DNA from: Amoebophrya sp. A120
Taxonomy: Eukaryota; Protista; Dinoflagellata
Length of the DNA: 64,000 bases
Direction of reading: 5' to 3'
NCBI GenBank assembly: GCA_905178155.1
Contig: CAJINV010000005.1
Span: forward strand, 4,873,369 to 4,937,368
The notes beneath the pieces were generated by a model that did no database searches, had not been told where the DNA came from, and saw nothing but the letters and a program-made list of their open reading frames with translations. The position numbers were made by a program, and so were the translations under genes. Positions 2,631-48,679 of this stretch are shown in pieces. The stretch's first letter is position 1, and every line of letters begins with the position of its first letter.

Positions 2631-5600
2631 TCACAGCGATAAGGGAACTTGTGGTGGTTGGGCGCCGAGTAACTCTGCGGCCAAGTCATCAAAATTAGGC
2701 ACTTCTTCTATCAATGGGTCTTGTTTTCGGCTGGGGGCAGGAGGCTCCAATGGACCATCTGCGGGAGGTGGGGGACCCGACTGCGGTGGCGAGCCTGCTC
2801 CAGCGCCGCCTGCTGTTACTGAGGCTGCCGAAGCCTGCGGCGGCAGTACCGGCGAATCTTGTTGGGCCAGTAGGAGACCCGGAGCCGTGGCTACTGCACC
2901 CGCCGCACCAGCTGCTCCGCCTGCTCCTGCAGGACCGCCAGCGCCGTCCAAGCTCGCAACCATCGCCGGTTGCGGCCTTCTTGCAACGGAAGCCTGCGGC
3001 GGCAGGTCGACCAACGAGCCTGCGGCGGCAGGTCGACCTCCCTGCTGCGGTTGAAGCTGAGAAGCCGAATCGGTGCCAGGTGGTAGAACGCTTCCCGCTC
3101 CAGGTCCTGCACTCGCGAGAGAAGTCGCCGGGGTCGCGGGTTCTGCCTGACCGGGAACACCTCCACCTGCCGCGGATGCCATACTCGCCAAAGATGGTCC
3201 AAGGTCGTCGTCGCTATCTGGCATGAAGGGTCCAACGCCACCTCCAACATCGCCAATTCGTCCACCTTCACCAAAGTCACTACCACTTCCCGGCTGCCTG
3301 TGCTGCGGTAACAAGGAAGTCGGAAAAAGCTCGATTACAGGAGCTGAGACTGCTTCGACCTGTGGCGCGAGCGGTCGCTGACCGGAACCTATCCTGAGTA
3401 AAAACATCCCCATGCCAGAGTCAAGATGGGAAATCTGCTAGACAAATTAGCCAGCTTTGGTTGTTTCGCATGACAAGTTTGTCCTCGTAGTGTAATCCTG
3501 TTGAGGTAGTTCAGAAGCATCACAGATCCAGCATATCATGCTGACTACATCACAAATTTCAAAACACGACTAGAAATAAGTGCTTCTCATGGGGCTCCGC
3601 ATGAGAAACTTTTTTGGCATGCAGATTTGCATGAGAACTCTGGGGTGGGCACGTTTTTACACAGGATAGAACCTCCTCCACCTCCCCTGGGTCCCGCACC
3701 CGGGCCCGCCGGCATCACCGGCGTCCTTTCTCCCACTCCCCCTCCCGCGTAACTGGCGGGAGGGCGAGAAAGTGACGACGCGGCGCTTCCCGCAGCGGCC
3801 TGTGCAGACCCTGCATCCGCAGCCGATGCAACAGGTGCCGTATCAGGCCCCGCCGGCACCACCGGCGTCCTTTCTCCCACTCCCCCTCCCGCGTAACTGG
3901 CGGCAGGGCGAGAAAGTGACGACGCGGTGCCTCTTGCAGCGGTACTTGCAGATCCTGCACCCGCAGCCATCGCATCGCCGGCCCCAGAATGTGCTGGAGG
4001 TTGAGCCGATGCAGAAGGGTCCGGCGGTCCCAGAAAAAGATCTCCTCCATCGTCAAACCCTCCCAAACCCGCCTGGCCCCCACCACCAGACACAGTTCCC
4101 GCATCGCTGCTCAAGGTAGAGCGCCCTGCTGATCCCGGAACACTCGCCGAACCGGATTTAGAAACACCAGAAGCGTGGTCAGAATCAGAATCGCTCTCCT
4201 CCGGAATGGTGTCGAGGCGTGTTGTCCGCAAGCGGTCCTCGTCAGTGGGTCGCCCCATGCTTCCCGCGTCTCCACCAACAAGTCCGACTTGCGGAACAGG
4301 ACGTCCGACAAAGGTGGCAGCGCTTGGCGCTGCAACGGTTGGAAGCAGAGGGGAGTCCGCAAAAGGTCCAAGCGGAATGTCGTGGGCCCAAATGGCGGGT
4401 TGACCCCGTGGACCCAGCAAGCCCGGTGCCTGTAGATCAGACTGCTGCGCCAGCCCCGGTCGTTGCCGTGGTGCTTCGTCCGCGGGCCCCCCTCCCATGT
4501 CCGAGGAACTGGGACCTGCAATAATAGAACCAGAAGGTGGTGACGCGGAAGCGCGTCCTGTCGCGGTACCTGCCGCCTCTGCACCTGCAGTCCTCGCATC
4601 CCCGGCCGCGGGGTGTAGCTCCGTCGGTGCAAAAGGTGCCGCAGCAGGTTCCGGCGGTACATCAAGGCCACCTCCAACGCCAAATCCCCCACCCCCGCCA
4701 CTAAATAAAGTGCGGGGCGGACGTACTGTCTGGAAAGGGTCGCGGGCCCCTTGCATTTCTCCCGCGCCTCCGCCTCCAATTCCGACTTGCGGAACAGCAC
4801 CTCCAAGAGAAGTTGCATCGGTCGGCGCTGCTAGACTTAGTGGACGAAGGGGGTCCGCAAAAGGTTCAAACTGCGACCGCGCGTTATGCGGATCGCCGTC
4901 ACTTGCTGCCACGGCAGGTCGTTGTGAATCCAGGACGCCCGCTTGTTGGGGGTTCAACGCATCGGTCGGTGCGAGACCCGGTTCGAATTTCATGCCAGGG
5001 TACTGGTGTAAGTTGTTCGGAATAGATGCAGCAAACGGGTCCGCAGCGGGAAGAGCCGAAGGTCCTCCGTCTACTTGTTCTCGCGAAAGCGGATGCTGCC
5101 TCGAGTCTGCTGGCCCAACATCGCTCGCCGAACCGAGATGATCAGAAAGAACACCAGAAAGAACAGAAGGGGTCCGGCTCCCTCCCCCCAACGCACCGGG
5201 ATGCACTGGCTCGAATGGCGACGCACCGGGAGGCTGCAGCAGTCCTCCCCCACCTCCGCCAGTTCCCATCCCGCCTTGCAAAGAACCTCCCCCAAAAGAG
5301 GACGCGCCGGCGCTCAGCTGTGTTGAAACGGGTGTTGGAGGAACGGAGCTCCCAAGAGATTCGCCGTCACTTGCTGCCATGGCGGCTTGGCCTCGTGGAT
5401 CCAGCAAGCCCGCTGGCGGTAGACCCGATGGCCCCGGCTGCGCCAGCCCCGGTTGCAATGCCGCTTCACGGTAGTCGTGCAAGCTGTCCAGAGTAAACGG
5501 CCCCGCAACGGGAAGCATTGCAGTTCCTCCGCTTTGTTCTCCCGAAGGCTGCTGCGGCTGTCCGAGTGGCGAGTACAGGCTCTGTGCTGGGTCCGCAAGA

Positions 5601-8249: not shown

Positions 8250-10371
8250 TCACTTTTCCCAGTTTAATTTCTTTTTCACCTCCTCTTGAAAGTCCGTCGG
8301 TAGAAAACTAAAGCAGAAACTCAAATGGCTTCGGCTCGCTTCCGTTTCTCGCATGGTGGATTCGAATTCCTTGGAAATTTCAAACACCTGTAGCAGCGGT
8401 TCCACTTCCACTTCTACTTCCCCCTCTTTGCTCTCCTCCTGCCCGTTGCCAGCTGAGGTCGCTGTGGTTTCTTTTTCTGCCATTTCGTCCGCCATTGTCA
8501 TCAGAATCTGCAGAATGTCTTCCAGCAAATCCGGTTCGAGCTTGTGAAAAATCTTGCGGCTTTCCGACACCTTTATTGTCGTGGCCAGTAGCCGTACTTT
8601 CGCCTCCGTTCCCTTCGCTCGGTGCCACGCGGTTACAAATTCGCTCAGGCGCGTCAGTATGGATTGCAAAAATGTCTGGGTCTCGAAGGTTGGAACTTGT
8701 GATCCTAACTTTGGACTCTAAAAAATTCTGTATTGCATAAACAGCAAGAGGAGTCCGGTTTGTGCTACGCGTGGAGGGGATTTGTCATGCGGAATAGGCA
8801 GCAGGAAGGCCTCTAAACATCTGTGATGCTAGGGCTTCCATGGCAGACATTCTGTGTCATGCAAAAACAGCATAAACAAATTTCGGATTCTTCCAGACCC
8901 AGACATTTTTGCATTTCATAGTCAGCTTTTTCGCCTTGCTGCTTGTTCCGGCTTGCTTGTTGCCATCGGCGCCGGAGGGTATGGAAGTGGAAAATGGTCG
9001 AGAGTCTACCAACTGTACTAGTTGCTGCTTCTCTTTTTGCAATCGGAACAAGTGACTTTTGCAGAAACACAGAAAGAATTATTGCAGCAATGAAGCAGAA
9101 GATCGAGCAAGAGAAACTGTGCAACTAACTACACTGAGCAAGAAGGTATCAAATGTAAAAATGTCTGGGTCTGGAAGATTGTCATGCTAGTCTGGCATGA
9201 CTCTGCACTCTGTATTGCGCGGCCACCAACAGGTCCCCTTGCCTGTCATGCAAAAGCGCAGTTTCTCATGCGAAATACGCATCACAGAAGCACGAAAAAA
9301 CTTGTCATGCTTGGCGGCGCATTACAGAGCACTTATTGTTCACGGACTTGCATCACAAGTTTCCAGACCCAGACATTTTTGCAGTTCATAGAAGGAACAA
9401 AACCACCGATTTCCACAGTCCCATACATGCGGAGCTGCTGGAGGAAGTCTGCTTCAGTGCGGGGTCTGCGATTTCATTTTATCCATTCGATTTTCCTATC
9501 TACTACTTCTTCCTGCATGACAAACAACAGCACGAATGCAGAACTATGCATGCCAATAGACTACAGTTCGAAACAAGAACTACGAACTCCTAATATACCG
9601 CCCCCCTGCCTCCCGTACTTGTTGTGGTCGAGACACTTCGGCGGGGCCTGAAAGTCCCTCTTGTTGATCGGCTTCAGCGTGCAGCCCGCGACCAGCTGCT
9701 CGAATTGGTGGTAGGTGGGCGCTATGAACTGCAAAAGTATCCGATACTTGTATAAATGCATTACAAATTTCCTCCGCGTGAGAAATAAAATTTGTAATGC
9801 GGATTCACCTTAAGAACAAGATTTGTAATGCATGATTACAATACGAGTATCAGATGCTATTGCACAGGATAGGCGCCTGGTAAACGGCGCGCTTTTTCGC
9901 TTCGTCGACGGTGTCCCGCTTCCAATCTTCGTAAACGCCGGCGGTGACCTCGTTTTTGAACTGGTCAAAATTACTGGGATCGAATATCGTAAGAAAAAAT
10001 CCCCCCTCCCCATATCGAAAAGGCCCGCCTCAGAGCATTTGTGATGCTTATTTGTGGCCACAAATCGCATCTGTCTTGCTCTTGCAAGAAAGCAACCGCA
10101 TAGGCTGCGCCCCATTATGCAGGCGATTTGTAATGCTGTTGGGCCTACAGCGTAGACGTTCCTCATGCTAAGTGCCTAGGTCGTAACCTCTCTAGATCGG
10201 CATGATATGGGCCTGCACTCCTCTAGTGCAAGACAAATCTGATTTGTGTACTTACGCAAATCCAGCATCAGAAATTTCGTTTTGATGTGGGGAGGGGGGA
10301 TTTTTCATTTTGATATCGAAAACCCCCTGGTCCGGCCGGAACGTCAACTTTTCCTGCTTCAGGATCGGCAT
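8250..10371 (-). CDS. CCDC103: Dynein attachment factor CCDC103/DNAAF19 homolog
   Basis: Spliced N-terminus DWKRDTVDEAKKRAVYQAPTYHQFEQLVAGCTLKPINKRD matches the CCDC103 dynein-attachment motif. C-terminus SEFVTAWHR...IFHKLEPDLLEDIL...LSFCFSFL is RPAP3_C-like. Middle exons (about 9010-9598) are uncertain. Confidence 0.85.
8658..8920. mobile_element. Introner family A
   Basis: TIR ...TGTCTGGGTCT / AGACCCAGACA...; TSD GTCAG. Confidence 0.95.
9147..9390. mobile_element. Introner family A
   Basis: TIRs; TSD GAAGG. Confidence 0.95.
9723..9871. mobile_element. Introner family C
   Basis: TATGAACTGCAAAAGTATC...TGCACAGGATA; TSD GGCGC. Confidence 0.93.
9985..10315. mobile_element. Introner family D
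   Basis: AAAAATCCCCCTCCCCATATC / GATGTGGGGAGGGGGGATTTTT TIR; TSD TCGAA. Confidence 0.95.
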
Positions 10372-14300: not shown

Positions 14301-17300
14301 CTGCAGCAAAAGCTCTTCCGGGGTGGAATACTCGGTGGCGACACTGCTTTGCTGCATCTTTTCCTGCTGCGGTAAGAACCCAGAAGGACTGGCGGGTGTA
14401 AAAGAAGTTCCGCTCACCCTGCTGCTCCTTGCGCTGCCTTTCGCCGCGGCATGCTGTTGACCCCCTATGTGTGCAGCCGAGGTCGGCGGTGACCAAGCGG
14501 TTATCGACGCGACGCTCTTGCTATCCGATTTCGCAGACTGTGGCGGGCTGGAGAAGTAGTAGTAATTGTTGCGTGTTTTGTTCTGCTCTTCATTCAATTT
14601 CTCTGGCGGACTACTGGACGCTGCGCTGGCGAACCCGGCGATGTTATCAAAAGGAAAAACTCCCCCTCCCCATATTAAAACGGAAATCTGTGATGCAGAT
14701 TTGTTGTCACAAATCAGCTTTGTCATGCTACACGGGAAAAGATGCGGACTGTAGTGCTGGGTGGCGTGGGGAAGCCTTGCATCTTCAGCATGATAGGAGG
14801 CAGCTGAAAGTGGGAAACAGCATGACAAATTGCCTGCAAACGAGGCCACGACTGCGGCTCTTGGCCTTCTAGCATGACAAATCGATTTGTGACCTCAAAT
14901 ACAGCATCACAAATTTCGTTTTCGATATGGGGAGGGGGGATTTTTCCTTTCGATAGATGTCGTAATTCTCCTGGTCGTCGAGAAAGTTTTGGTTTTTGTT
15001 CAGAGGTATGAACTGCAAATATGTCTGGCTCTGGGAGATTCCGAGCCTTGTCATGCAGATTTTCCATGATCCATGTCGTCTGGAATTCAGCACCTAGCAC
15101 GACAGATTCTCTGAGATCCCTACCATGCCTATCCTGCATGAGAAACTCCCTGTCAACTTGATCGAAAGTGGACGTCTTTTGGCACTCATGCAACACAGAA
15201 TCTTGCATGCTTCAGACTTAGCATGACAAGTTGCAACCTTCCAGATCCAGACCCAGACATATTTGCAATCCATAAGAGACTGAAGCACCGTGGTCAAAGG
15301 TGACCGGGGCCGCTTGTTCGTGTTGTTATAGCCTTTGTTCAGCATTTCATGTCGTGGACTGCTGTTAAAACTGCTGTTAATTGCCGCGGTGCTCGCAGTA
15401 TGCATTGCAAATGTGTCTGGGTCTGGAAGATTGCTATAGCAGACTTGTGACGGCGCAGGTCTTGCATGACCCATACCGTCTGGCAAACAGGACCTAGCAT
15501 GACAGATTCTGTTTTTACATCTCTATCATACCTCTCCTGCATGACAAACTGCCTCTCAACTTGGGCAAAAATACACACCGTTTGGCAATCATGCAACACA
15601 GATTCTTGCACCATTCTAGACTTACCATGACAAGTTGCAGTGTTCAGGACCTTCTAGACATATTTGCACTTGATACGCATAGGCAGCTTGCTTCACTTTC
15701 CCAGAAGAAAACACTTCTTCCAGCTCCTGCATTCGTCTTCTCGCTTGTTCGATTTTCTTCACTTGCTCCTCTTTGGACAAAAGCTTGCTCGCGAAATCAT
15801 TTTTAGCGGTCTTCTTGTTGCTTTTCCCAAATTTCAAATTGTTGTTACTCCTGCCCTTCTTGTTCGCATTCAGCACTTCCTGCAGCGCCTCCTGGGCTAT
15901 TAAGAGGAAACATCCCCCCTCCCCATATCGAAAAGGTATGCTTGCGAAAATTTGTGTTGCTGATTTGAGACCACTAATCACGTCTGTCTTGCAAGAAGGC
16001 AACTCCACAAGCTCCGCAGCATTGTGCAGGCGGTTTGTGATGCTCATGGGCCTACATCACGGACTTTTCTCATGCTAGACCCCTAGGCCAAAACCTCTCT
16101 ACTTAGGCTTAGTATGGGCCTGCATTCCTCTCCAGCAACACAAATCTGACTTGTGTACGCAAATCCTGCATCAGAAACTTCGTTTGGATATGGGGAGAGG
16201 GGATTTTTCCTTCTGATATGCGCTTTCTTCGCTTCGAGCCTCAGTTTTTCCAATTCCATTTCCCGTTTTTCGTTTTCAATCTTCTCCCGTTCCTCCACCA
16301 ACTGCGCAAGCATGGTTTCCTCTTTCGCCTCTTCACAGATCAGCTCGCCCTATCAACTGCAAATATGTCTGGGTCATCTGGAAGATTTCTCATGCAAGTC
16401 TGGTATGACTCTGAGCTCTGTATTGCGTAGCCGCAAAGACGAGCTCCTCCTTTATGTCTTGCAAAAACGTAGTTTCTCATGCGGAGTACGCAACTCAGAA
16501 CCACGGAAAAACTTGTCATGCTGTGCAACGCATTACAGTGTGCTCACTATTTTCCCCGTGCTTGCATCACAAGTTTCCAGACATCCACGGGAGATATTTG
16601 CATTTGATACGCCCTCGGTCGTGTTCAGCAGCAAGTCGTCATTGTCGTATTCGTCGGGCTCTTTTCTGTCAAAGCTGAAGGGTTATCCTGAGTAAAAACG
16701 TACCCACACCAGAGTCAGGATGGGGAATCTGCTAGACAAATCAGCCAGCTTTGGTTGTTTGGCATGACAAGTTTGTCCGCGTAGTGTAGTGCTGTTTGAG
16801 CTAGTTTAGCAGCATTACAGATCTAGTATCTCGTGCTGATTGGAGCATGACAAATTTCAAAACCACACTAGAAAATGCTTCTCATGGGGCTCCGCATGAG
16901 AAACATTTTAAGCATGCAGAGTTGCATGACAACTATGGTGTGGGTACGTATTTACTCAGGATAAGGGCTTCGGCTTAGTCACCGGGGCGGGTTGGATGTT
17001 TGGGTTGTCGGTGTTGGGCGGGACAAGATTTGGATGCAGCTTGTCCCGTATTCTCGTCGCCATGTTGTTTCGGCGGGCAGTGGAGCTGTTGTTATTCGAG
17101 CTGGATTGTAGTTTGCCAGCAGTCTGTCTTGCGGGTGCTGCTGGGGCAATTTTTCCACCACCAATATTCGCCATGTCCTCCCTCCGGATGATTTCCGTTC
17201 GCGTTTCCTGCTTCAGATGCGCGGGCTTGGTTGTGGACATCACGACATTGGTACTGTTTGATGTAGTTCCGACACCACCAACATTACCGCCGCCGCGTGG

Positions 17301-21258: not shown

Positions 21259-24200
21259 TCACCTTTTCGGCTGCTGTGGACTACTACTACTGCTATTTTT
21301 CGTGCTTCTATTGGAGGTTGCACTAGGTTTCTGGTACGGCCCCGCACTGGCAGCACTCGAACTACTTACTCCCGCAGCGGAGGTGCCCGCTGAGTTCCTG
21401 TTCTCAATGCACCCATCGAGCGATATCGCTTCCAGGATCCTTACCCTTGTGTCCTGCTGGTACGCAACAGCCGCGGTGTTCGTACTGAAATCCGGGGCAA
21501 CCATCGTGTCCTGCATGGTTACATCGGCCGGAGGCTCATCGTTCTCGTTCAGATTTATCTCGTCCACCCGATTTGCCTTCTCCGCAGATGACGTCGTCGG
21601 AGAGGACGAACTCACAACAGACCGCTTCCCGTCGTCGCTGCCGAGCGCGAAGGAAGACAAAGTGGACAGCTGCGCGATGGAATTCTTATCCTCGTCTTCC
21701 GCGACAAGCGAAACCGAATCCGCGTTGGAGTTCGTTCTCGGCGGCTGACTCAGAGTGGTGACGGAGGAGGAGGAACTCGGAGAAGTTCTCGCGTTATTTG
21801 TACTGCTAATACCTTTAGTACCTGGGGAAGAACGACTCGGGCTTCCTCTCGGGTTCGAAGAGGTGGAAGCTTGTGCAGCAGCAGCGGTTCCGGGGACTAC
21901 CAGCAATTCCGCAACGGATTCCGCGCCGGGCGGGGGCTGGTACCGCGGGACGTGTTCGGAGGTGGAGCATGTTGAACCTTCCGGGTTATCTGATGTCAGT
22001 CTCAAATCACCACTACTGCTACCATTGCTCTCGTCCCGGTCCGCCCCTCGGGTCACCTTGCAGTGAATAAAAACCACCCCGAACAGGCCGATCACGCACA
22101 AAACCGTGAAAAACAATTGGCTCATGAAGTAATTGTTTCCCGTCGCGTCCACCAAGTGTCCGTACACGATATTTCCGAAAAACAGCCACAGGGACTGCTG
22201 CATGTAGCACCCCCCCACGTGCAAAACTTCCAAATCCTTGTTTTTGCACACGTGGGGCACCAGGGTCCAGAGCGGCACGACGCAGCAGCCGAAACCAATG
22301 CCGAGAATCACGCAGCAGACCCACGGCGGAATTTGGAGAAGCGCGTTGTGGATGGAGGAGGTCGTGAGGGTTGAGTTTGTTTGGAAGGAACTCAACATTG
22401 TTGTCCCAAAAAAGCTGCTGCTGGTACTGCCACTGCTGTTTTCAACATTATCCTCGAAGAAGTTGTTATTTGTCCAGGAGACGTCGGCGCTATTGTACTG
22501 AAACGCAGCAGAATCGTTGTACTCTGTGTCGTAGGCCTTCAAAGTGATCAGGCCCTGACCGATGAAGAGCAGCACGAACGCGAAGCAAGCAAACCGGATC
22601 AAGCGTTGAAAAGTGTGGAGCAGCGGGGCCAGGAAGAGGGAGACAACGGAGATTCCGGGAATCAGCGCGATCGCGGAACCGGCGACGCTGTTTGGTTTTT
22701 CGTTTGGTGTTTTTGCATGACAGATTCTACTTTCGTGCTTGCTTTCTTGCATGACAAACTAGTTTTGGACAACTGACAACCAAAATAGTAGATTTTACCT
22801 CTCCGACACCCCCGCGACCCTTTGCAACGTCAGACAGCCGTTGTACTCGAAAACGAACACCACTGTGTATAGCAGCCCGATTAGCGCTTGGTGGATGAAA
22901 CACAAGGCGGTCAAATCTTTCAGCCCCGGCTTGCCATTCCCGTCACTGCCATACTTCCCGCCGCCCCCGCTCGCGGCTAGCAGCGGCCGGATCTTTCGGG
23001 AAATCTCCGTCCCGCTATACAGGTACGCGAAGGACAGGTAGCAGCACCCGGACACGCAGACGAAGACGAAGGAAAATTTCATATCCTGAGTAAAAATGTC
23101 CCCACACCAGAGTCAAACTGGGAAATCCGCTAGACAAATCAACCAGCTTTGGTTGTTTCGCATGACAAATTTGTCCTCGTAGTGTAGTCCTGTTCTAGGT
23201 AGGTCAGCAGCATCACAGATCTAGCATGTAATGCTGATTGTAGCATCATAACTTCCGAAACACGACTAGAAAATGCTTCACATGGGGCTCCGCATGAGAA
23301 ACTTTTTTGGTATGCAGATTTGCATGACAAATCTGGGGTGGGGGCATTTTTCCTCGCGATATTTCAGCGCCTTCAAAAACGCCGGGTTGTTGGTGTGTAT
23401 GTCCGCATCTGGGTCGGCGAAGTACTGCTTCAAAGGGTCGGCCAAGATGTAGCCCATGGTCCCGCCGATCCGGCACGCCGCCAACACTCCCGCCTGCGCG
23501 ATCGCGGCGTACTTTTTGCTGAAGAGCAGAAACACGACCACCACCTGCACCACCCCGGTGGTGCAAATCCCCGCCCAGAACAGGACCCGGCCGAGGATGG
23601 AGAGGAAGTACACCTCATACTGGATGGCGGCGATTAGTAGGAAGGACCCGAGACAGACCATGGACCCGAAGAGGAGACAGGATTTCGAAATGCCCCAGTT
23701 CCGCACGAGAAACCCCGCCGGGCCGGAGAGCACCGCGGAAAGCGAGCCCGTGGCGAGATATCAAAATGAAAAATCCCCCCTCCCCATATCAAAACGGAAA
23801 TTTGTGATGCTGATTTTTTTTTTTTTTATGGCGGCAGTTTGTTTTGGCTACTAAACTTGCGATGAATCTCATTCCTAGTTTTCATTTTGACCTTAATGCT
23901 GCCGCGGTGCTCACGTCGACCGATATGCAAACAGGTGCCGAGGCCTGTTTGCATGCGATCTAGTGAAGGTATATTGGGCGTTCCCGTCTGCCTTACCACG
24001 TCGCCCGGGCTTGCAGGGTTGGGATTTTCCTGCCGGATGTTCAACGACATCTACGTGGCTAGTCATGATCCCTCTCCCTGTTGCGACCTGCTTTTTTGTT
24101 TGGTTGAAAAAATCCAAAAAATGCAAGGTTGAAAAAAAAACAAAGGCCGCGGTCTGTATTTGTTGAAAGATAGGAGGGAAACCCACCACGTAAGCAGGAG

Positions 24201-26033
24201 AAAATTTGGGCACGAGAGAAACAGAGCATGTACTAGGGCTGGGATTATGAAGCGGAGGCCATTAGACTACGAGGGCAAATATGTAATGGGCCAGACGATG
24301 AGAAAAGCGACAAACTTACTTAGGGGCTCACTAGCTAGCAAGGGCGCGAGGGGCTATCAATCGCAAGTAAAGCGGCCTAGGGAGAAAATGCTTAAGACTC
24401 GACAAAAGCCAAAGGAATCATCAACGATGCGAAAAAAGCGAAAAAACAACAGAGAATCAGAGGCGCAGGCTAGAGGAAGAAAAAACGCTTAACGGTCTCT
24501 CAGGAACAAGAGGAAAATCGTAGCCAAAAAACCAGAAGAGATTCTTTCAGTTAAGGGGAAAAAAAAAAGAGGATAGGACGCGAGTTGTCATGCAAATTTG
24601 CTGCAATGACAAGAACATCTGCGATGCGCATCCCCCGGATAGGCATTTGCAATCGTGTTTGGGGATTTGTGCTGCTGTAAACACGATCAGGACATGAATT
24701 TGTAATGCGGCTGGTGTTAATTTGTAGTTCTATCCGTGGATGAAACAACATACAAACCTGAAAGACATCACAACAATTTAGATGCTGATTGTGTGGTCAC
24801 AAATCATCTTTGTCTTGTATATAGGATCATAGGAGCCATTTGACGCATTCCAGAGCAAGTCTGTCATGCGCTTTCGACTACTGCAAGCCTGTTTGTCATG
24901 CGCAATTGCTAGCCTTCTGCATACCCAAACAAGCTGAGAAAATGCCGCCAAGCACTTTCTGCAAGACAGATCTGATTTGTGTACGCAAATCCAGCATGAG
25001 AAACTTCGTTTCGATATGGGGAGGGGGGATTTTTCCTCTCAATACGAGGATGAGGGAGTACTTGGTGTTGTTGATGTTCATCGCGAGCTGCAAATCCTCC
25101 TTGTATGGGGGTGTCAGGATTGAAATCGACAAATTTGAAATGATTTGTCATGCATAAAATCGATACCAGTTGGAAGCACAATTTCGAAGCGGTGCATGAG
25201 AAATTTCGGCACCGTCTAAATCCAGTTTGTCATGCTGTTTAGGCACAGAAGGCGTCTTTTGTCATGCTACTTTAGCAGCTCTATCGCAGACCCCAAACAG
25301 GCTTACGATCCGCCTCACTTGCCATCCCGGCAAGACAGGCACTTCATGCCTTGCATTTTATTCATCGCAAACTCTTTCAACTTTGACGATTTCAAACCTG
25401 ACACATCCATACCTTGTACGCACCAAATAAGCTGTCGAAGAAATACGGGCCGGGAATGAAGCAACAAACCAGCACGTGGACGATCAGCAAGTGGCAGGTT
25501 CTCCTCGGATCCACCAGGTACTTCATCCACCGGTCTAAACAGGTCCTACCGGGTCGCGACGAGGAGCTCGACGGGCTGGTGCTGGAGGAGTTCTGCTCTT
25601 CATGATTGCCCCGCGACCCCTGCTGGTCGTAGTTGTTGTCCGCTCCTCCTGCTCCTCTTGTTCCGATATTAAGGAGGTTGCTGGAAGAGGAATTCCTTGA
25701 ACTGGCCGGCGAATTGTCTCTACTACTCGTTGCTGCGAAAGTATCGAACGCGTGGCCCGCATTTTCGTTCGTGCCGTCGAGGGCGGGCAAGGCGATGGAG
25801 AGCACGGGTTCGGACCCCGCGGTCCGGATCCACTCTTGCTTGGTCTTTTGCACGTAGAGTTCCGGATTATTACTTACTCGGCTGGGCGGTCGCTGCTGCT
25901 GTTGTTGTGAGGCAGCATGGTCAGATGGATTCAGCAGCGGGCGGTCGCGCCGATTGTTCCCGGCGGACGGCGAGGACGGCCTGCGCGGGCCCTGCTGTCT
26001 GCGCTGGTTCTGGCTCGGTTGCGAAGAACGCAT
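21259..26033 (-). CDS. Major facilitator superfamily transporter, MFSD1-like
   Basis: Spliced CCFIPGPYFFDSLFGAYKEDLQLAMNINNTKYSLILATGSLSAVLSGPAGFLVRNWG...LGRVLFWAG...ACRIGGTMG resembles MFSD1 TM1-5, with multiple hydrophobic helices. Three introners plus one GT-AG intron (about 22689-22798). Confidence 0.85.
23082..23361. mobile_element. Introner family B
   Basis: TIRs; TSD TTTCA. Confidence 0.95.
23759..25044. mobile_element. Introner family D expanded by a ~965-bp nested insertion
   Basis: D-type TIRs at both ends; TSD CGAGA/CGAGG; body interrupted at a duplicated GATGCTGATT. Confidence 0.9.
23816..24780 (-). mobile_element. Nested insertion with a poly(T) end and 10-bp flanking duplication (retro-type or repair-templated)
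   Basis: GATGCTGATT at 23806-23815 and 24781-24790; T-run to 23827; contains a TIR-less family B fragment at about 24582-24730. Confidence 0.65.
25104..25411. mobile_element. Introner family E (opposite orientation to the 19338 and 20046 copies)
   Basis: TIRs; 308 bp; TSD CCTTG. Confidence 0.95.
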
Positions 26034-39721: not shown

Positions 39722-40274
39722 CCTAGGCGGCTGCGTTACGCCCCGGCGTCGGAAACGAAACGTAAGAAGCCGCATGCGCGGGCGCGCCGATCCTACGACG
39801 CTCCCATGCAGCAGGCCTTCGGGGTTCCGCGGCCTTTTTTTCATATGTAGTGACACTTTTCTTACTTGCCCCCTGTGCATCATGCGAGAAGGCTTTCAGC
39901 GTGCGTGCGGATGGGGCTTGCCACTGTCTAAATTTCACTTCGAGTGCTGGTCAGCGAAGATGAAAACTTGAGCAGGAAAAGGGTGAGGGACGACGAGCGA
40001 AAGGTTGAGTGGACTCTGTTTTCCACCGCGCGTCCGGCTTTTCGAGCGAGTGTGTACGGAATCACCAAGCGCAGCAGCTCCCGAGCGATCGCAGCTGTGA
40101 TAAGTACAAGTACTGCCGGGGCCAGGGCCCCCCGCGGGTTTTCTATCTCCTCTCTCCTGCCCTCGTACGGGGGGGTAAGTAAGTAGCAGCTACGGCAGGA
40201 CGCAGATTTATTTGCGGGCGGAGTCGCGGGGGTTCTTTCAAATTTCGTTGAACCATTCGCGTGTGGGAAAAAAA

Positions 40275-43200
40275 ATGGACTTTGACCAGTTTGACACGGA
40301 AGAGCTGGACCAGCTCGACATCAACGCGCTGCGGGAGGGCATCCTTCAGCTGATCGGCGACCGGCACAAAAAGCGGGAGGCGCATATCAAATGCAAAAGT
40401 GTCTGGGTCTGGAAGAGTACAACTTGGCATGCTAAATCTGAACCATACAAAAATCTGTGTTGCATGATTACCAATTATAAAGCTGTTCACTTTTGAGAAG
40501 GCAGTGAGGTAGTTTCTCATGCGGAAAAGGCATGGTGAAGATCTTGCAGAATCTGTGCTGCTAGGGCATGCATCACAGACCTCACGCGTCATGCGAAACG
40601 TGCATGACTAACGTTGCACTTTTCCAGACCCCGACACTTTTACACTTGATAGCGCAGGAGCGGATACAGGAGAAGATCCGGGCCCTGAACAGCGAGCTCG
40701 CTATGAGAGTGCACAACTCCCCCTCCCCCTCATTTGTATAGCATGAACGGCAATAGAAGCGTCAGCAAGGCTGCCGGTTTTGCATGGCAAATTTGCACAG
40801 GAGAGCAGTACTATTTGTGCTGCCGGAATCTGTCATGCAAACAGTGCCACAAGGCAGCGCCTGAGTTTGGAGTTTTGCATGACAAATGAGGGGGAGGGGG
40901 GGTTGTGCATTGTCATACCTGCGGCCAGGCAGGTAGAAGGCGATGAACTCGCGGAGGAGTTGGAGGATGTGCGGGCCTATCAAATGCAAAAATGTCTGGG
41001 TCTGGAAGAGCCAAACTTGTGATGCTGCATTTGGATGCTAAAAAAATCTGTATTGCATGAGCAGCAAGAGGAGTCAAATTTGGCTACGCGGAGAGGGCAT
41101 TGGTCATGCAGGATCCGCATCGATAGGCGCTCAAAAAATCTGTGATGCTATGGCATACATCACAGACATCATGGATCATGGAAAATGTGCATGACAAACT
41201 TCTCCTCTTCCAGACGCAGACATTTTTACATTTGATAGGGCCGAGAACACGAGGAAACTCAAGTCCATCAACATCAACACGGACTCGGGTGTATGATCCT
41301 GTGCAAAAGTTGTACCCTCGTTGTTGAAAACCATACGAATTGCAGTCTTGCATGACAGATCTGCTTTGCTTGCCTCAAGCAGCATGACAAATCAGTTTTG
41401 GAAGATCAAAACTTGTTGTCCCCGTTGCGCAGGCGTGGTGCTTTTGCAATGCATACCGTTCGGGAGACATCATGGCCATGGACTTTGACCAGCTGGAGGA
41501 GATTCGTCAGATCTTGTTCGGCGAATTGCAAAAGCTCGCGGGGTCGAAATTTGATCCGAGTGAGGACATCACGAAAATCGAACCAGATGAAACCGAGCTC
41601 ATGGTGGAAAAGGACGATCCGTCCAAGGAGCAGTCCATAGTCGACACAGTGCTGGTCCTGTTCCACCCAACAGAAGATCCCGAGGGACAGGTATTCACGC
41701 AAACCTACCGAACTACCGAGTCGACCACGGTGAAGCAACTTTTGCGCGACGCCTGCAAATACTGGGCCGTCAGCACGGAGGAGTTTGTTCTGAAGACCGT
41801 CGGCTACAACGCCAAAGTGCAGGGGTCGATGCAGGTGACGCAGGTTTTCCGACCGGGGGAGCTTAGCCAGCTGGTGCTGATGAAGAAGAACCCGAAGAAC
41901 GTCTTCGTTTCCGAAGCGGAAAAGCGGGCGTGCTTACCGAAGAAGGGGCGCGGCGCTGCGGGCGCTGCCGGGGCGGTGGAGAAGAAAGACAAGGACGAGG
42001 ACGACGCCCCTGTGTACAAGAAAGAAAAGCCGTTTTTGGAGCAGCTGAACCAGATATGAGAGTGCACAACTCCCCCTCCCCCTCATTTGTCATGCAAAAT
42101 ACCGAATGCACTCTGTGCCCTTTTGGATTGTTAGCATGACAGATTCTGGCAGCCAAAAGACCACTACAATCCTGTGAAAATTTGTCATGCAAAAGCTGTT
42201 CATGCAATGCAAATGAGGGGGAGGGGAGGGCTGTGCACTCTCATACCAGTTTCCAGGGTTGCGGGAAACCTTACTGCAGAAAGACTTGTCGGTCTACCAC
42301 GAACCCGAGAAGTGCCGGGACTGCTTCGGGTTTTTCCTCCTAGTGCTCTTTTCGTTTTTACTGATCTACCTCGGCTACGCATTGCAAATATGTCTGGGTC
42401 TGGAGGGTTGGAACTTGTAATGCTAAATCTGAATCATGCAAAAAATTTGTGTTGCGTGATTTCCAACAGCCGCCTCTTTTTACCAAGTTGAGAGGGAATT
42501 TCTCATGCAGGATAGGCATGATAGAGATCTCACAGAATTTGTCATGCTAGGCACTGCATTTCGGACCTCATGGGTTATAGAAAACCTGCATGACAAATCT
42601 GGCATCCTTCCAGACCCGAATATGTTTGCATTTGATATCGACCGGGATTTCCAGAAGGAATTTTTCCTCGCGGAGGACGTGCGCGCTATTTTGGTCGACA
42701 AGTTGCAGCTCTTATCCTGTGTAAAAACGTACCCACCCCAGAGTTGTCATGCAAATCTGCATGCTCAAAATGTTTGCCATGCGGAGCCCCATGCGAAGCA
42801 TTTTCTGGTCGTGTTTTGGAATTTGCAATGCGCCAATGAGCATGATATACTAGCTCTGTGATGCTGCTGAAACAGCACTACACTGCAACTCCAAATTTGT
42901 CATGCAAAACAGCCAAAACTCGTGGATTTGTCTAGCCGATTCCCCATCTTGACTATGGGGTGGGGACGTTTCTACATAGGATAACTCTACCGCATCGCCA
43001 CCAGCGACGACTACTTCAGCTATCTGAGAAGCCTCGAGCTCGAGTTATGCACTGCAACAGTGTCGTACTCGTACTAAAACTAATTGCGGCTATGCATGAC
43101 AAGTCTTCTTCTTAAGGTAAAAGAGCAAGACAAGTTCCATTTGTCATGCCGAGCAAATTTGTAATTGCAATAGCTACAAGTGCGATACTGTTGCAATGCA

Positions 43201-46200
43201 TAGGAACTCACCAACAACGACTTGTTCAACCACTTCTCCGTGCCCGTCGGCTATCTGCGCTTACGCCAGCATATGCGAGAGAAAAAAGCAGGTAAGACAT
43301 ATTTGCAATGCAAAAATACCTACGCAAAAAAAATCTGTATTGCATATCCTGAACAGCATACTATGGGGCCGCCCATGACAGATTTTTCTGTGTATTTATT
43401 TTTGCATTACTACCTTCTTTTTTCTGTGTGATACAGCAGCGCGTCCTGGACGCGATCCGCGGCGGGGAACTACTCGACGACGCAGCCGAGGTGTGTGTGT
43501 TAAAACGGGGCCGAATAGCAAGGCAGGGGGTCTGTCCCGCACGGTACGTGAACGAGGACAGCGCGGACAAGGGGAACATATGCATTGCAAATATGTTGTC
43601 TGGGTCTGGAAGCAGGATCCAAACTTGCCATGCTAAATCCGAATCGGACAAAAAACTGTGTTGCATGATCCGCAGAAGTTACAGACATCTTGCCACAGAG
43701 AAGGCAAACTTCTCATGCGGAACAAGCATTAAGAATAAGTTCAAGAAGCTCTGGTAAAATTTGTGATGCTTCTGGGTGCATTCCAGACCATCTTTGTGGT
43801 CCACGAGATGCATGACAAACGTTGCTCTCTTTCAGGAGACCCAGACGTAGTTGCACTGGATAAAACACGATTACCAACGAGTGGATTGCGTACGCGAACT
43901 TTGACAACGGGGTTACCGGGGTATGCATTGCAAATATGTCTGGGTCTGGAAGAATGCAATTTTGTCATGCTTGTCTCACACTACAGTTGCATCTGTAATG
44001 CATCAGCAGGAAAAAGACCACTTGCCTGTCATGCAGGAGTGCAGTTTGCCATGCGGAAAGCGAAACACAAAGGAGCCCAGAAACTTGTCATGCTTGGCTG
44101 CGTATTGCAGTGCGCCCATCATTCACAGATTTGCATCACAAATCTCCAGACCCAGACATGTTGGCAGTTGATACGGGGTCACCAATTACAACACCAGTCT
44201 GCTTCTGACAAGCAAAGCGGGCAACGAGTCGCTGATCACCACAGCGGATTACAACCGGTTTTTACAGTCGGAACCGGCATATGCATCGCAAATCTGTCTG
44301 GGTCTGGAAAGGTTGAGCCTGTATTGCGTGTCCAGGATTCCAGAAAATTCTGTATTGCATGAAAGCAACAGACGCACCACGATTTCCTCATGAAGAAGCA
44401 GAGTTTGTAATGCGCGCTCAGCATGAAAAAGCGATTAAAAAATTTGTCATGCTACAGTGCACTGAAAGGCGCACTCGCTCACGACCATTCAGCATTACAG
44501 GTTTCCAGACCCAGACATATTTGCATTCCATACCGCAGAGTACTTCCGCGACCTACTGTACCACGGGCATGCGGATTATCAACTGCAAATATCCACCCTG
44601 GATGTCCGGAAGAATCCAACTTGTGATGCTGTCTTTGGATTCCAAAAAAAGTCTGTGTTGCAACATGACCAGCAAGAGGAGTCCAGCTTGTGCTACGTGG
44701 CGAGGGCATTTCTCATGCGGAAGAGGCATCAACAAGGAAAAGGATTCTAAAAATCGGTGATGCTAGGGCATACATCACAGACAAGCATGGGTCATGTAGA
44801 ATATGCATGAGAAACCTGGCAATCTTCCAGATCCAGACATATTTGCATTCCATACGGATTCCTTATCGACAACGAGTGCGAATACACACACCCTCGCCCT
44901 CCAGCAGTCGACGTCAGTGGTGGAAAATCTTCTGAACCTCAATCCGACTTTGAAAGCGCAGTGGGAACTCCGGGGGCGGAGAAGAAGGACGCAGACAACA
45001 GGAACTACAAGCGAGTACATCTACGTCGACCCGCCCTGGCTTTCCATGTTCCTCACGGGAGGTGCATCACCGACAGGGAGCTTGCCCACTACGACTTCCT
45101 TATCGAAAAGAAAAGAAGACCCCTTCACCTTTGTCTCCGCGGAGCAGGCCGTCGCGTCCTCTGCTGATGTAGATTACGAAGCGACCGACGGGCTCGTGCA
45201 ATCCTCATACGACGCATCGGGGTACCGAATCGACTGGCACATGGATTTCCTCCACGAAACCATGCGGTACGACTTGACAGACCTGCAGCGGGTGCAGTGG
45301 ATCGATACGTTTACGCGGTTATGAATTGCAAAAGTAAATCGCACTCGTACTAATTCTTGCAGATTTGCATCACAAATCCTCGCCTTCCTAATGTAAAACG
45401 GCATCACAAACTCCATCTGTCATGCTCAGGTGATGCAATTTCTGCTAGAAATGCGATATTTTTGCAATGCATAGCAGTTCTTGACCGTGAATTTCGTTTT
45501 GTACAACCCGTCGGACGATTATTTTATCAATGTCCAACTGAAAACAGAATTCCCCGCTACCAGCTCGGCAATAAACTCCGAATCCATCACGCCGATGCGA
45601 CCCAACGTGATGGAGACGGAGGATGAATTGGGAACGATGTGGCCGCTGGAACTGACCAGACTGCTCGTGACCATTCTCTTCGTGTACCCTGATGAAAAAA
45701 AAAAACCACCCCATAGTCAAGATGGGTATCTCGCAACACAAATCGAGAAGTCTTGGGAGTCAAGCATGACAAGTTCCTCTCTGTCGTGTAGTGCAATTTA
45801 GCAAGTACAGCCGCAACACAAATCCATCTAGTCATCCTGTTTACAGCATTACAAAGTCCAAAACACGATGGGAAATGCCTCTCTAGGGGATGCGCATTAC
45901 AAATCTTTCTGTAACTGCAAATCTGCATGACAAGTATGGGGTGCGGACGTTTTCACTCAGCATATCGTGGGCTGCTACATCATTCCCAAGCACATCGGGA
46001 TTTTCTGGGCCCCCCCGGCCAACCGCGCAGTCGTGTGGGCGATCAAGGGCCCGGAGCTGAAGCTGCAACACAAGTATCAAATGCAAATATGTCTGGGTCT
46101 GGAAGAGTGCAAACTTCTCATGCATATTTTCCATGCCCCATGAGGTTTGGAATGCAGGCCCTAGCGTGACAGGTTCTGCGACGTCCCTATCATGCCTATC

Positions 46201-48679
46201 CTGCGTGACAAACTGCCTCTAAACTTGTTCAAAACTGGACAGCTTTTGGTAGTCATGCAACACAAATTTTTGCACGATCCAGACTTAGCATGACAAGTTC
46301 GCATCCTCCCAGACCCAGACATATTTGCAATGCATAACAAGTTCGCCGACTATATTTTTTCTTTTCGCGGGGCGCTGGACTTCGCCATTCTGATCGTGAC
46401 ATTTATTCTGTTCATCACCAAATACACGACGTTCGCGAATCTAAAAACCTACAACGACACAACCGCATCAACGGAAACGACCACCACGACAATAGCCGCG
46501 AGCGGATATGGCGAGGAAAATAAATCCCCCCTCCCCATATTGACACGGTACGTTTTCGAAAATTAGTGTTGCTGATTTGTGGCCACAGATCGCGTCTGTC
46601 TTGCAAGAAGGCAACTCCACAGACAGCCGCCGCATTTTGCAGGCGGTTTGTCATGCTGCCGGGCCCACAGCGCGGAGGTTCTTCATGCTAAGCGCCTAGG
46701 CCAAAGCCTCTCTGCTCCGGCTTGATACGGCTCCGCAGTCCTCTCCAGCAAGACAAATCTGATTCGTGTACGCAAATCCAGCATGAGAAGCGTCGTTCTT
46801 TTATGGGGAGGGGGGAGCTTTCCTGTTGATAGCGGAACCACAGCAGCCGCCACTTCCACTGATGCAATGACGGAACAGGTAGACAGCTCCATATTGAGAG
46901 GAAAAGTCCCCCCTCCCCATATCAAAAAGGCATGCTTCCGAAAATTTGTCTTGCTGATTTGAGACCACAAATCACGCCTGTCTTGCAAGAAGACAAACGC
47001 AGAGGCTTCCGCGCCATTATGGAAGCGATTTGGCATGCTGTTCGGCCTAGAGGGCAGCCGTTTGTAATGCTAAGCACCTAGACCCAAATGTCCCGTGGTA
47101 GGCTGCGGATCTAGCTGCGATGCCGTATTGCAAGACAGCGCGCATTTGTGTACACAAATCATGCATCACGGATTTCCCATTTGATATGGGGTGGGGTCTT
47201 TTTTCATTTTGATACTCCACGACGGTTCTTTACCACCTGTTAAAAGGGGACTACGTCCAGCTTCCCGCAGATAGCTACAAACAGCTCGCCGTCTACGAGG
47301 GTTTGTTTTTCGCGTTGGCACTGTTGCGGTTAACCGGGAACTTAACCTCGCTGACCCGGCACGGCTACATCGCGTTGGAAACGCTGAAAACTTCCCTGGC
47401 GTTTGTCACACCGTGGTTTCTTGCGTTGTTGCTACCAATGTTCTTCTATGCATTGCAAAAGTATCGTATTAGTACAGATTGCATCACAGATTTTCTCAGA
47501 AAGAAAAATGGAATCTGTGATGCTGAGGCAGCTATAAAAAGTAGAATTGTCATGCAAGGTTGCAATTAGTACGAGTGCCATACTTTTGCAGTGCATATCT
47601 TCATCATCGCGCTACTCTTCCACGTCGCGTTCGGCTCGACGTGGGTGAACTACCGCACGTATTTATCATTTGAAAAAACGTCCCCACCCCAGAGTTGTGA
47701 TGCAGAATTGCATCTACAGAAACATTTGTAATCCGGGTCCCCATGAGAGGCATTTCTAGTCGTGATTGGAATTTGTAATGCTGGAACGAAACAGGATCAG
47801 CAGATGGATTTGTGATGCGGCTGTCCTTGCGAACCTGCACTACACTACGGACTGCAACTTGTCATGCGTGGCTCCCAAAAATTCTAGCTTTGTGTTGCTA
47901 AGTTCCCAACTTGACTATGGGGTGGGGACGTTTTTACTCAGGATAGTATTTTCAGTCGGTTTCCACCAGTTTCCGGCTGTTTAAAGGTCGGATGAGCAAC
48001 GGGGAAGAGTTGAAGTTCTACAATACGGACCGGTTAATGACGGCGATCGTGATGCTGTTTTTGTTCACGTTTGTACAGCAGTTGATCACGTTTCTAACCC
48101 TAGCGGTCATCCTCCATTTCTACCAGTTCTACTACACAATTCTCGGTGGGTATCGTACGAAAAAAGTGTTTCACTGCAAGAGTTTTGCGAGTTTTGCATT
48201 ACAAGTTCGGTACACATCATGACAAGGAAAACTTGCCATGCGAGGCTGCAAAAGGAAAACACAGCTAAAAACCACTTGTCTTGCATGTGTAGCAACACAA
48301 ACACTTCTACAATGCATTGTCTGCATTACAAGTTTCCAGTGAAGCCGTTTTTTCTTGCGATAGTGGCTACAGTTACCCAAACGTGCTGGAAGTAGCGCAG
48401 GCGCACGGGCAGGACCCGAGACGGAATTTGGCGAACACGATCAAATATTCAGAAAAGTACCAGTGGAACATAATCCAGTGGGCGGAGTACGCCTGCGTGC
48501 CCCCCTTGGCCGAAAAGATAAGATTGATGGTGGAGAAGAAGCCAAAAACAGTAGAAGAGGAGCTACTGGAGGAATCCCAGGCGTTGAAGGACGGAGATGT
48601 AGAGAAAGAGTCGGACGAACAGAGTGCAAAATCCGGGGAAATAGAGATAAATAGTCCTGTGAAACCGGCGGTGGCGTGA
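40275..48679 (+). CDS. Polycystin-2 (PKD2/TRPP)-like cation channel with an N-terminal coiled-coil extension
   Basis: Spliced motifs IATSDDYFSYL, PVGYLRLRQQRV...C...CPARY..ED, YDASGYRID, LQRVQWIDTFTR, VNFVLYNPSDDYF, followed by several TM helices. The gene contains 21 introners. Confidence 0.85.
40385..40651. mobile_element. Introner family A
   Basis: TIRs; TSD GCGCA. Confidence 0.95.
40702..40917. mobile_element. Introner family F
   Basis: TATGAGAGTGCACAACTCCCCCTCCCC TIR; TSD CTCGC/CCTGC. Confidence 0.9.
40978..41237. mobile_element. Introner family A
   Basis: TIRs; TSD GGGCC. Confidence 0.95.
41292..41455. mobile_element. Introner family C (degenerate)
   Basis: TGCAAAAG / CTTTTGCA TIR core; TSD decayed to GGGTG/CCGTT; removal plus 5 nt keeps the frame. 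Confidence 0.75.
42055..42245. mobile_element. Introner family F
   Basis: TIRs; TSD CCAGA/CCAGT. Confidence 0.93.
42376..42637. mobile_element. Introner family A
   Basis: TIRs; TSD TCGGC/TCGAC. Confidence 0.92.
42713..42983. mobile_element. Introner family B
   Basis: TIRs; TSD GCTCT/ACTCT. Confidence 0.93.
43046..43202. mobile_element. Introner family C variant
   Basis: TATGCACTGCAACAGTGTCG / CGATACTGTTGCAATGCATA; TSD decayed to CGAGT/GGAAC. Confidence 0.88.
43272..43433. mobile_element. Introner family J (single copy, largely palindromic)
   Basis: TATGCGAGAGAAAAAAGCAGGTA...TACCTTCTTTTTTCTGTGTGATA; TSD CAGCA; removal gives RLRQQRV. Confidence 0.9.
43579..43862. mobile_element. Introner family A
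   Basis: TIRs; TSD GAACA/AAACA. Confidence 0.9.
43922..44173. mobile_element. Introner family A
   Basis: TIRs; TSD CGGGG. Confidence 0.95.
44280..44532. mobile_element. Introner family A
   Basis: TIRs; TSD CGGCA/CCGCA. Confidence 0.93.
44577..44854. mobile_element. Introner family A
   Basis: TIRs; TSD CGGAT. Confidence 0.93.
45320..45473. mobile_element. Introner family C
   Basis: TIRs; TSD GCGGT/GCAGT. Confidence 0.9.
45685..45964. mobile_element. Introner family B
   Basis: TIRs; TSD TCGTG. Confidence 0.9.
46075..46336. mobile_element. Introner family A
   Basis: TIRs; TSD ACAAG. Confidence 0.95.
46507..46831. mobile_element. Introner family D
   Basis: TIRs; TSD GCGGA. Confidence 0.93.
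46892..47214. mobile_element. Introner family D
   Basis: TIRs; TSD CTCCA. Confidence 0.93.
47447..47597. mobile_element. Introner family C
   Basis: TIRs; TSD TCTTC. Confidence 0.95.
47664..47945. mobile_element. Introner family B
   Basis: TIRs; TSD GTATT. Confidence 0.95.
48151..48362. mobile_element. Introner family H-like
   Basis: TATCGTACGAAAAAAGTGTTTCACTG / CAGTGAAGCCGTTTTTTCTTGCGATA; TSD GTGGG/GTGGC. Confidence 0.9.

Follow-up and report, generated by a model that had tools for sequence, protein, structure and literature searches.

Introners of the window and their removal from transcripts

The window, the entire 64-kb stretch of Amoebophrya sp. A120 DNA analysed here, is densely populated by introners. 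A search for inverted ends with flanking duplications, followed by curation, recovered at least 65 elements that run from TAT to ATA between 5-bp target-site duplications (TSDs). The catalogued 65 sort into 11 families, with members of 129-331 bp and a single insert-bearing copy of 1286 bp, and further uncatalogued copies lie near 1140-1377, at 54343 (truncated) and at the end of the window, which cuts one. The duplication is exact in 42 of the 65 listed elements, has one mismatch in 17 and is worse in 6, one of which (45686) stems from a boundary placed 1 bp off. The end profile of 53 window elements is an inverted repeat of TAT, about seven variable nucleotides and then at least three A, and all families end in TAT-N5-(G/A)NAAA. 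The elements are short, lack coding capacity and combine terminal inverted repeats (TIRs) with a TSD of fixed length, as do MITEs. They are the introners already published for A120. No transposase, and no transposase or integrase Pfam domain, was detected among 27 ORFs of the window and 125 ORFs of related loci.

The family A introner at 9147-9390 (244 bp, TAT...ATA) is nested inside a minus-strand gene, the strand of which was inferred from the ORFs. It is flanked by GAAGG at 9142-9146 and again at 9391-9395 (both read on the plus strand), and its ends constitute a TIR of about 30 bp (9147-9176 on the plus and 9361-9390 on the minus strand), in which 22 of the first 25 positions of the left end match the right one. 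Between these ends, the minus strand displays TGTCATGC at 9180-9187, with its anchor G 41 bp from the left end, followed by TGTATTGC at 9211-9218 (+31), TGTCATGC at 9244-9251 (+33), TCTCATGC at 9264-9271 (+20) and TGTCATGC at 9303-9310 (+39). The plus strand carries a weak copy, GCATGACT, at 9195-9202, which lies 8 bp (G to G) past the 9180 copy and scores under the 8.5-bit cut-off, then GCATCACA at 9279-9286, GCATTACA at 9319-9326 and another GCATCACA at 9350-9357, the anchor G of which is 41 bp from the right end, mirroring the 9180 copy. The family B introner at 3390-3668 (279 bp, duplication GAACC) has six motif slots on one strand, at 3437, 3468, 3517, 3547, 3599 and 3629. All 15 motif starts that the earlier note had claimed in these two elements carry the motif or a near copy, with no mismatch in 4, one in 8 and two in 3 (9211, TGTATTGC; 3437, GCTAGACA; 3547, ACATCACA); the gaps and the 15-16 bp forward/reverse offsets it gave follow from the confirmed coordinates.

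A second data set of at least 164 loci (550 kb) comes from another assembly and, having been retrieved with the family A TIR pattern, is biased to that family. It adds at least 348 element copies, among which the matches listed contain no long coding element. The one exon compared is 87% identical to its A120 counterpart, which makes this assembly a distinct lineage carrying the same families. Across both sets, at least 408 copies of up to 450 bp resolve into 13 families of at least three copies, two pairs and 21 singletons, with families J and K of the window fusing into one. Spacer similarity links B with F (41 bp at 83%, E 3.5e-6) and F with G (61 bp at 74%). The description of the families as otherwise unrelated has to be given up: the termini, the 5-bp duplication and some spacer blocks are common to them, and they resemble modular derivatives handled by a single machine.

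Several further features of the elements are recorded here. TIR positions 4, 5, 7, 10, 14 and 15 vary often even between close copies, next to nearly fixed neighbours, and positions 4-7 are unmatched between the two ends in 4/5 families; three TIR patterns compared with viral contigs gave no match. Elements are up to 98% identical across lineages (window 14645-14955 and L036:2965-3275) as against 87% for the one compared protein, a hint of elements passing from lineage to lineage or of shared activity in the very recent past. Of the four long elements, three (L032:632-1465, L036:5314-5770 and L066:571-1051) hold unrelated inserts that resemble retroelement insertions: their tails consist of (ATG)n or (ATGA)n, and they are located at or beside the CATG of the motif. 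A D-type element at 23759-25044 harbours ~970 bp of inserted DNA with poly(T) at one end and what looks like a duplication of 10 bp. Part of this insert is a family B fragment (24582-24713), and removal of the entire element leaves the ORF open. A truncated family A half-element (54343-54473) lies within a long GT-AG intron (~54210-55295) ahead of a short tandem repeat, a 541-codon frame (50712-52337) is stop-free through the element 51461-51713, and a related locus codes for a C5 cytosine DNA methylase domain (L020:2-1090).

As for expression, DNA contigs contain the tested elements, and RNA-type contigs (contigs of runs from one study that were guessed to be RNA) lack both these elements and one copy of the duplication at each. 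Excising every element with one duplication restores ORFs of 1050-1953 codons; a case in point is the plus-strand host ORF at 40179-48676 with its 21 elements, which after this excision matches the annotated A120 protein in 1094/1097 residues. The exon 41460-42047 is 100% identical to an A120 protein and finds a 61% match in strain A25. The stretch 45680-48362 measures 2683 nt in DNA as against 813 nt in the RNA-type contig, a loss of 1870 nt that equals seven elements plus 5 nt each, and similar arithmetic accounts for the 1746 nt lost from 14640-16962 by six elements plus 5 nt each. Length arithmetic likewise places among the removed elements a plus-strand family B copy (45685-45964), in which all strong motifs are sense GCATGACA, together with a minus-strand copy (47664-47945) that is oriented the other way within that transcript. 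Off-phase copies are removed too: a family A copy at 16351-16609 with first motifs 45 and 46 bp from its two ends (by arithmetic), the copy at 43579, and the family A copy at 49473-49727, in which a terminal deletion leaves a motif 35 bp from one end and for which the joint from 49466 to 49727 is seen. No RNA joint was displayed across the family A copy at 9147-9390 itself, and two raw RNA runs matched element ends only, with no exons.

Imperfect duplications mark the cut sites. Joints 45317 and 50437 show the left copy retained through position 3, the annotated residue at 42640 shows it retained through position 4, and the piece that starts at 48363 retains position 5 of the right copy; accordingly, the retained bases point to an intron of the form N-TAT...ATA-NNNN. 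At junctions 42376, 45320, 48151 and 50440 the cut falls between duplication positions 4 and 5, and the resulting N-TAT intron start is in register with the common GT-AG donor G-TAT. Predicted GT-AG introns of the window and the loci have A/C-rich 3' ends (e.g. AAACAG), with the pyrimidine tract absent. At 56864-56888, a motif TGTATTGC ends 17 nt upstream of the point where an RNA-type contig has a loose poly(A) end.

Conservation and spacing of the internal motif

The motif, GCAWBASA, occurs at 19.5 per kb inside the elements as against ~1.1 per kb outside. Its profile, W-GCA(T/A)(G/C/T)A(C/G)A-RRY, in which a variable pair is flanked by two conserved triplets, has 344 hits in the 17.6 kb of elements in the window and 49 in the 46.4 kb outside them, 7 of the 49 sitting in two uncatalogued elements. 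The exact 8-mer occurs 118 times in the 64 kb, where ~2 occurrences are expected at uniform base use; the profile trained on the window yields 392 hits versus 28 in simulated sequence, a comparison that is partly circular. The motif is common to at least 13 multi-copy families and the array spans the entire element. The expectation that motif columns are conserved over spacer columns was borne out in 4/5 families (A 0.84 vs 0.48, B 0.87 vs 0.69, C 0.85 vs 0.62, D 0.82 vs 0.61; p <= 0.002), with conservation in families A-D on par with that of the TIRs; in family E (n = 3) the excess is not significant (p 0.12). Nor is the motif a conserved part of the TIR: among the matches listed, a look-alike stands at nucleotide 4 in 86/816 ends, in the most variable stretch of the TIR.

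Periodicity was evaluated by drawing one random copy per family and comparing it with random layouts. Same-strand pairs fit a period of 10.0-10.7 bp, about 10.4 (window p median 0.005, which is the floor of 200 permutations, range to 0.035), and their phasing repeats in the second lineage (p ~0.002 among the matches listed). Reverse-then-forward pairs are also phased (window p median 0.005; second lineage 0.01 with a wide range, among the matches listed). Forward-then-reverse pairs (23-24, 41-42 and 55-57 bp) are unphased in the window (p median 0.09) and in the second lineage (0.08, among the matches listed), as are their family-level spacings (p 0.25). Since spacings of 30-33 bp make up 17/27 of the same-strand values at the family level, the peak at 10.4 reflects in part a harmonic of a single unit; an equally high peak lies at 15.75-16, and without the 29-34 bp class the same-strand signal is weak (p median ~0.03-0.04, range 0.002-0.26). 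Hence, of the helical spacing proposed in the earlier note, the part concerning same-strand and reverse-then-forward pairs stands in the autocorrelation of both window and second lineage and that concerning forward-then-reverse pairs falls, with the 31-33 bp unit carrying most of the signal. The half-turn shift between strands it anticipated depends on the anchor: at the conserved GCA triplet, reverse-then-forward pairs are ~1.5 bp off integral turns, and the shift vanishes when one of the two conserved triplets serves as anchor.

The clearest independent sign of helical constraint comes from the distances to the element ends. The first inward TGTCATGC lies 40-41, 48-52 or 60-63 bp from the end, and 16 family-level values, which are hand-read family modes, give a phase R of 0.86 that was matched in 0/5000 nulls, the null range having been set from the data; the best period is broad (9.5-11.5). 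Several common variants stand 9-11 bp, or about one turn, apart (41 vs 50 at the right end of family A, 52 vs 62-63 in D-type and 51 vs 61 in G-type elements). Element length shows no helical period (R 0.29, 13 family modes). Among the matches listed, spacer turnover in family A has left the 31-33 gap in place in 161+11+1 of 185 copies. A lattice that repeats every 31.5 bp and has its forward copy at +8.5 fits, to ~2 bp, 17/27 same-strand, 10/15 reverse-forward and 6/9 forward-reverse modal spacings and reproduces the gaps of 8-9, 23-24, 39-41 and 55-57. It suggests that the ancestral unit measured three turns, and such a 31.5-bp unit with an inverted motif pair, reverse at 0 and forward at ~8.5, is the probable origin of the array. 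The array is thereby confirmed to be real, conserved beyond the spacers and roughly phased. The elements themselves are known, and neither this shared, conserved and roughly phased internal array nor its spacing turned up in the literature searched (open text and some supplements).

Candidate readers of the array

We tentatively favor the view that the array comprises duplex-DNA binding sites for the protein that mobilises the elements, most likely an integrase-like transposase acting in trans, with the binding itself predicted. The elements would then be non-autonomous DNA transposons that double as introns, and the predicted transposase would occupy a single helical face and, by bending the element (110-330 bp), bring its two ends together. 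The array, being phased, end-anchored and conserved over the spacers, appears to work like the subterminal repeats of transposons. The suggestion of a sequence-specific protein on duplex DNA is thus retained as the best reading of the array, the protein standing as a prediction.

Selection on motif and phase would have operated during amplification of master copies rather than at the splicing of each copy. Amplified variants keep phase, whereas rare private indels ignore it, striking motif cores in 14/114 cases versus 17.2 expected (matches listed); private insertions are not depleted in the motif. The ratio of private core substitutions to the spacer rate rises from 0.31 through 0.46 to 0.51 as nearest neighbors get closer, which suits selection on amplifying masters, but it stops short of 1 (0.5 in the closest copies), so that some constraint may persist after insertion. 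Displayed differences between DNA and matching contigs fall in motifs in 5/40 cases as against 17% expected, but these are a biased subset of 193 and carry no weight here. The idea that rare indels within families come in multiples of 10 was rejected, as their sizes peak at 3 and 6.

The private insertions have a signature of their own. Among the matches listed, 74 of 150 are 3 nt long and 20 are 6 nt long; the former have the form XY-N-XY in 64/74 cases (12 expected) and the latter that of a 5-bp duplication plus one base in 10/20 (0.6 expected). The same duplication-plus-one-base form is seen in 11/14 single-codon exon insertions relative to A120 in one related locus (L013:690-4790; background 0.28). 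Footprints left by an element with a 5-bp duplication would match the +6 class, and a staggered cut 3 nt into the flank with one added base would yield 0, +3 and +6. The insertions are possibly frame-preserving footprints of excision or repair. As this in-frame signature is common to elements and exons, it may be relevant to the fast evolution of proteins that has been reported in the genus.

A less probable alternative, though one to be taken seriously, is that the motif is the site of a host DNA-binding or DNA-bending protein that was co-opted to help transposition or to set a chromatin state, comparable to IHF in Tn7-like elements. It draws on the abundance of the motif outside recognisable elements: in 402 kb of masked DNA the exact motif is enriched 5.6-fold (76 vs 13.6 expected), making GCATGACA the most over-represented non-palindromic 8-mer in element-free DNA (words that are its anagrams have a median of 9 and a maximum of 46). 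In long non-exonic stretches these copies are strand-neutral (63 and 63 vs 20 and 16), and same-strand pairs in element-free DNA cluster at 31-35. The statement that the motif is rare in exons is true in absolute numbers, but predicted exons hold 45 hits as against 17 after codon shuffling, a 2.6-fold enrichment. A related sequence, TGCATGCA, is bound by ApiAP2 factors of Plasmodium (PMC4797266), a parallel of resemblance only. A further occurrence of GCATGACA, in PMC6482013, proved to be a primer adapter.

Some of these outside copies reside in predicted GT-AG introns, where 14/48 carry the motif, often 37-52 or 74-86 nt from the 5' end, with sense TGTCATGC accounting for 15 copies versus 6; neither the strand bias (p 0.078) nor the phase (R ~0.39) is significant in these predictions, which contain errors. 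A predicted minus-strand intron at 9466-9598 has an exact motif at 9515, 84 nt from its 5' end, and another at 22688-22798, also on the minus strand, has two exact copies 50 and 84 nt from its 5' end. The latter is 76% alike over 59 bp to the element at 41295 and so is likely an aged, H-like introner. Against a host protein, then, two or more of the outside hits are element relics (the family B fragment at 24582-24713 and the H-like relic at 22688-22798), the intergenic strand switch at ~37-40 kb has two weak hits only, and the tight end anchoring is explained more directly by an end-cutting complex. Conversely, the orientation bias of family A, the enrichment outside elements and the core ratio of 0.5 all fit a host factor and weigh against a transposase alone, as do the failure to detect a transposase in the ORFs screened, the weak tie of the motif to the TIR, the unphased forward-then-reverse spacings, the weak same-strand signal outside the 29-34 bp class and the element lengths without helical period; given the perfect copies in single-copy DNA and in some GT-AG introns, the motif may have a host role.

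Unlikely, in our estimate, is a splicing code, in which a protein would read the RNA (UGUCAUGC 40-60 nt past the 5' cut) or the template DNA in place of the missing U1 snRNA, which was not detected in A25 or A120 according to the report on these strains (PMC7789003). Here, the symmetry of the TIRs means that in most families a sense TGTCATGC lies equally far from the 5' cut whichever way the element is oriented, and the motif-bearing GT-AG introns could be added in its favor, as could the orientation of family A. Among the 227 copies placed in exons by our in-house gene finder (window and loci), that family is biased to sense TGTCATGC (59:32, p 0.006), with no bias in B (11:9) or C (16:15). 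Yet 34/48 predicted GT-AG introns lack the motif, and an obligate strand-specific RNA signal, with a sense motif at a fixed distance in every spliced copy, is not what these exonic copies display: 68/227 have no sense TGTCATGC within 70 nt of the 5' end, 18/227 have none at all at the cut-off used, and 19/227 lack sense GCATGACA. In family B, the strong copies of which share one strand, the transcript that loses the element at 45685 also loses the oppositely oriented one at 47664. Since removal tolerates both orientations as well as off-phase copies, and private insertions spare the motif no more than chance, the array is probably not a splicing code. Splicing would rather be guided mainly by the paired ends; left-right concordance exceeds expectation at some TIR positions between 9 and 28 in 3/5 families. 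Consequently, of the two roles that the earlier note had considered, its verdict of no RNA signal is upheld, both orientations leaving one transcript and internal stems with the motif failing to covary, and a mark for excision finds no support, since DNA contigs retain the elements that RNA-type contigs lack. The array is best matched by a duplex-DNA signal, with pairing of the ends as the simpler way to guide splicing.

Slightly less likely still, the array might be a by-product of tandem and inverted duplication of the 31.5-bp unit along with module swapping, its inverted copies adding to fold-back of RNA or single-stranded DNA. Such a history would account for the lattice fitting most modal spacings and for the spacer blocks common to families. 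Compared with shuffled sequence, the element interiors have better folds (median z -1.2 to -5.8; whole 9147 element z -9.5), which inverted motif copies would themselves produce. Even so, this account is already strained by motif columns that are conserved while the spacers diverge and by the persistence of the 31-33 gap in family A. Furthermore, stacked internal covariation involving the motif is absent in families A and B, where it is confined to the TIRs, with weak internal candidates in two other families, and the strong copies of family B are one-stranded.

About as improbable is a scheme in which a host factor or domesticated transposase bound to the array on the DNA template passes the nascent transcript to the spliceosome, so that introns would be defined on DNA, free of orientation and without GT-AG or U1; if it were true, aged introners turned GT-AG would keep the motif because of a present dependence of the host on it. 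A branch-point reading is ruled out by the lack of a downstream YAG peak in either orientation beyond the CAG of the motif itself and by motif-bearing GT-AG introns mostly carrying the other strand, nucleosome-type A/T periodicity in motif-masked spacers is weak (amplitude ~0.05), and a 6mA (ApT) target was set aside because common variants lack AT.

Relation to known introners and transposons

The genome of A120 is reported to contain ~30,000 repeated non-canonical introns, with no U1 snRNA detected and no transposase identified (PMC7789003), and the text of Farhat et al. 2021 reports no transposase for this strain (PMC7789003). The introner elements described there resemble those of the window in their inverted repeat of TAT, seven variable bases and AAA, in their direct repeats of 3-5 nt, and in their length of ~240 nt, non-canonical ends and hairpin (PMC7789003). 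As far as its text and the supplement text go, that report mentions terminal repeats only, with no family-specific inverted-repeat motifs detected, and the internal GCATGACA array and its spacing are absent from it (PMC7789003). The shared motif suggests that the numerous 'families' on record are one system with one machine. As one motif runs across the families, it also offers a single bait for the responsible protein and a simple test with phased, dephased and scrambled arrays; in this sense, the motif array is a testable handle on introner spread.

The best lead to a transposase is introner family 38 of A120, which is described as having 'TA/TA termini, 5-bp TSD' and homology to an integrase-type transposase (PMC12130899), a likeness by description. 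The Ginger and IS3EU-GingerRoot elements have TA..TA termini like those of the window (PMC10045372). Unlike them, the window elements are only 110-330 bp and ORF-less (PMC12130899, PMC10045372), and their TSD is 5 bp, as opposed to the 6 bp usual for IS3EU/GingerRoot (PMC10045372). With regard to splicing, the nonconventional introns of euglenids provide a close parallel: they too are paired through TIRs, have TSD-like boundaries and lack GT-AG, and their removal is thought to be based on end pairing (PMC11282704); a phased internal motif array is not part of the description given there (PMC11282704).

With regard to the array itself, parallels come from DNA transposons. The Lemi1 transposase binds subterminal repeats of the Emigrant MITE (PMC1636448), and there is a dependence, periodic at 10 bp, on the spacing of TnsB sites, which in Tn7-like elements occur together with IHF (PMC10201428). 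Emigrant/Lemi1 (PMC1636448), the BED sites of Hermes (PMC10368747) and the Tn7-like TnsB sites (PMC10201428) all share with the introners short repeats in both orientations just inside the ends, spaced at the helical pitch. What sets the introners apart from these three is that their array, with binding predicted, does not repeat the TIR as a conserved copy, spans the element, recurs in at least 13 families and belongs to a sequence that is also an intron.
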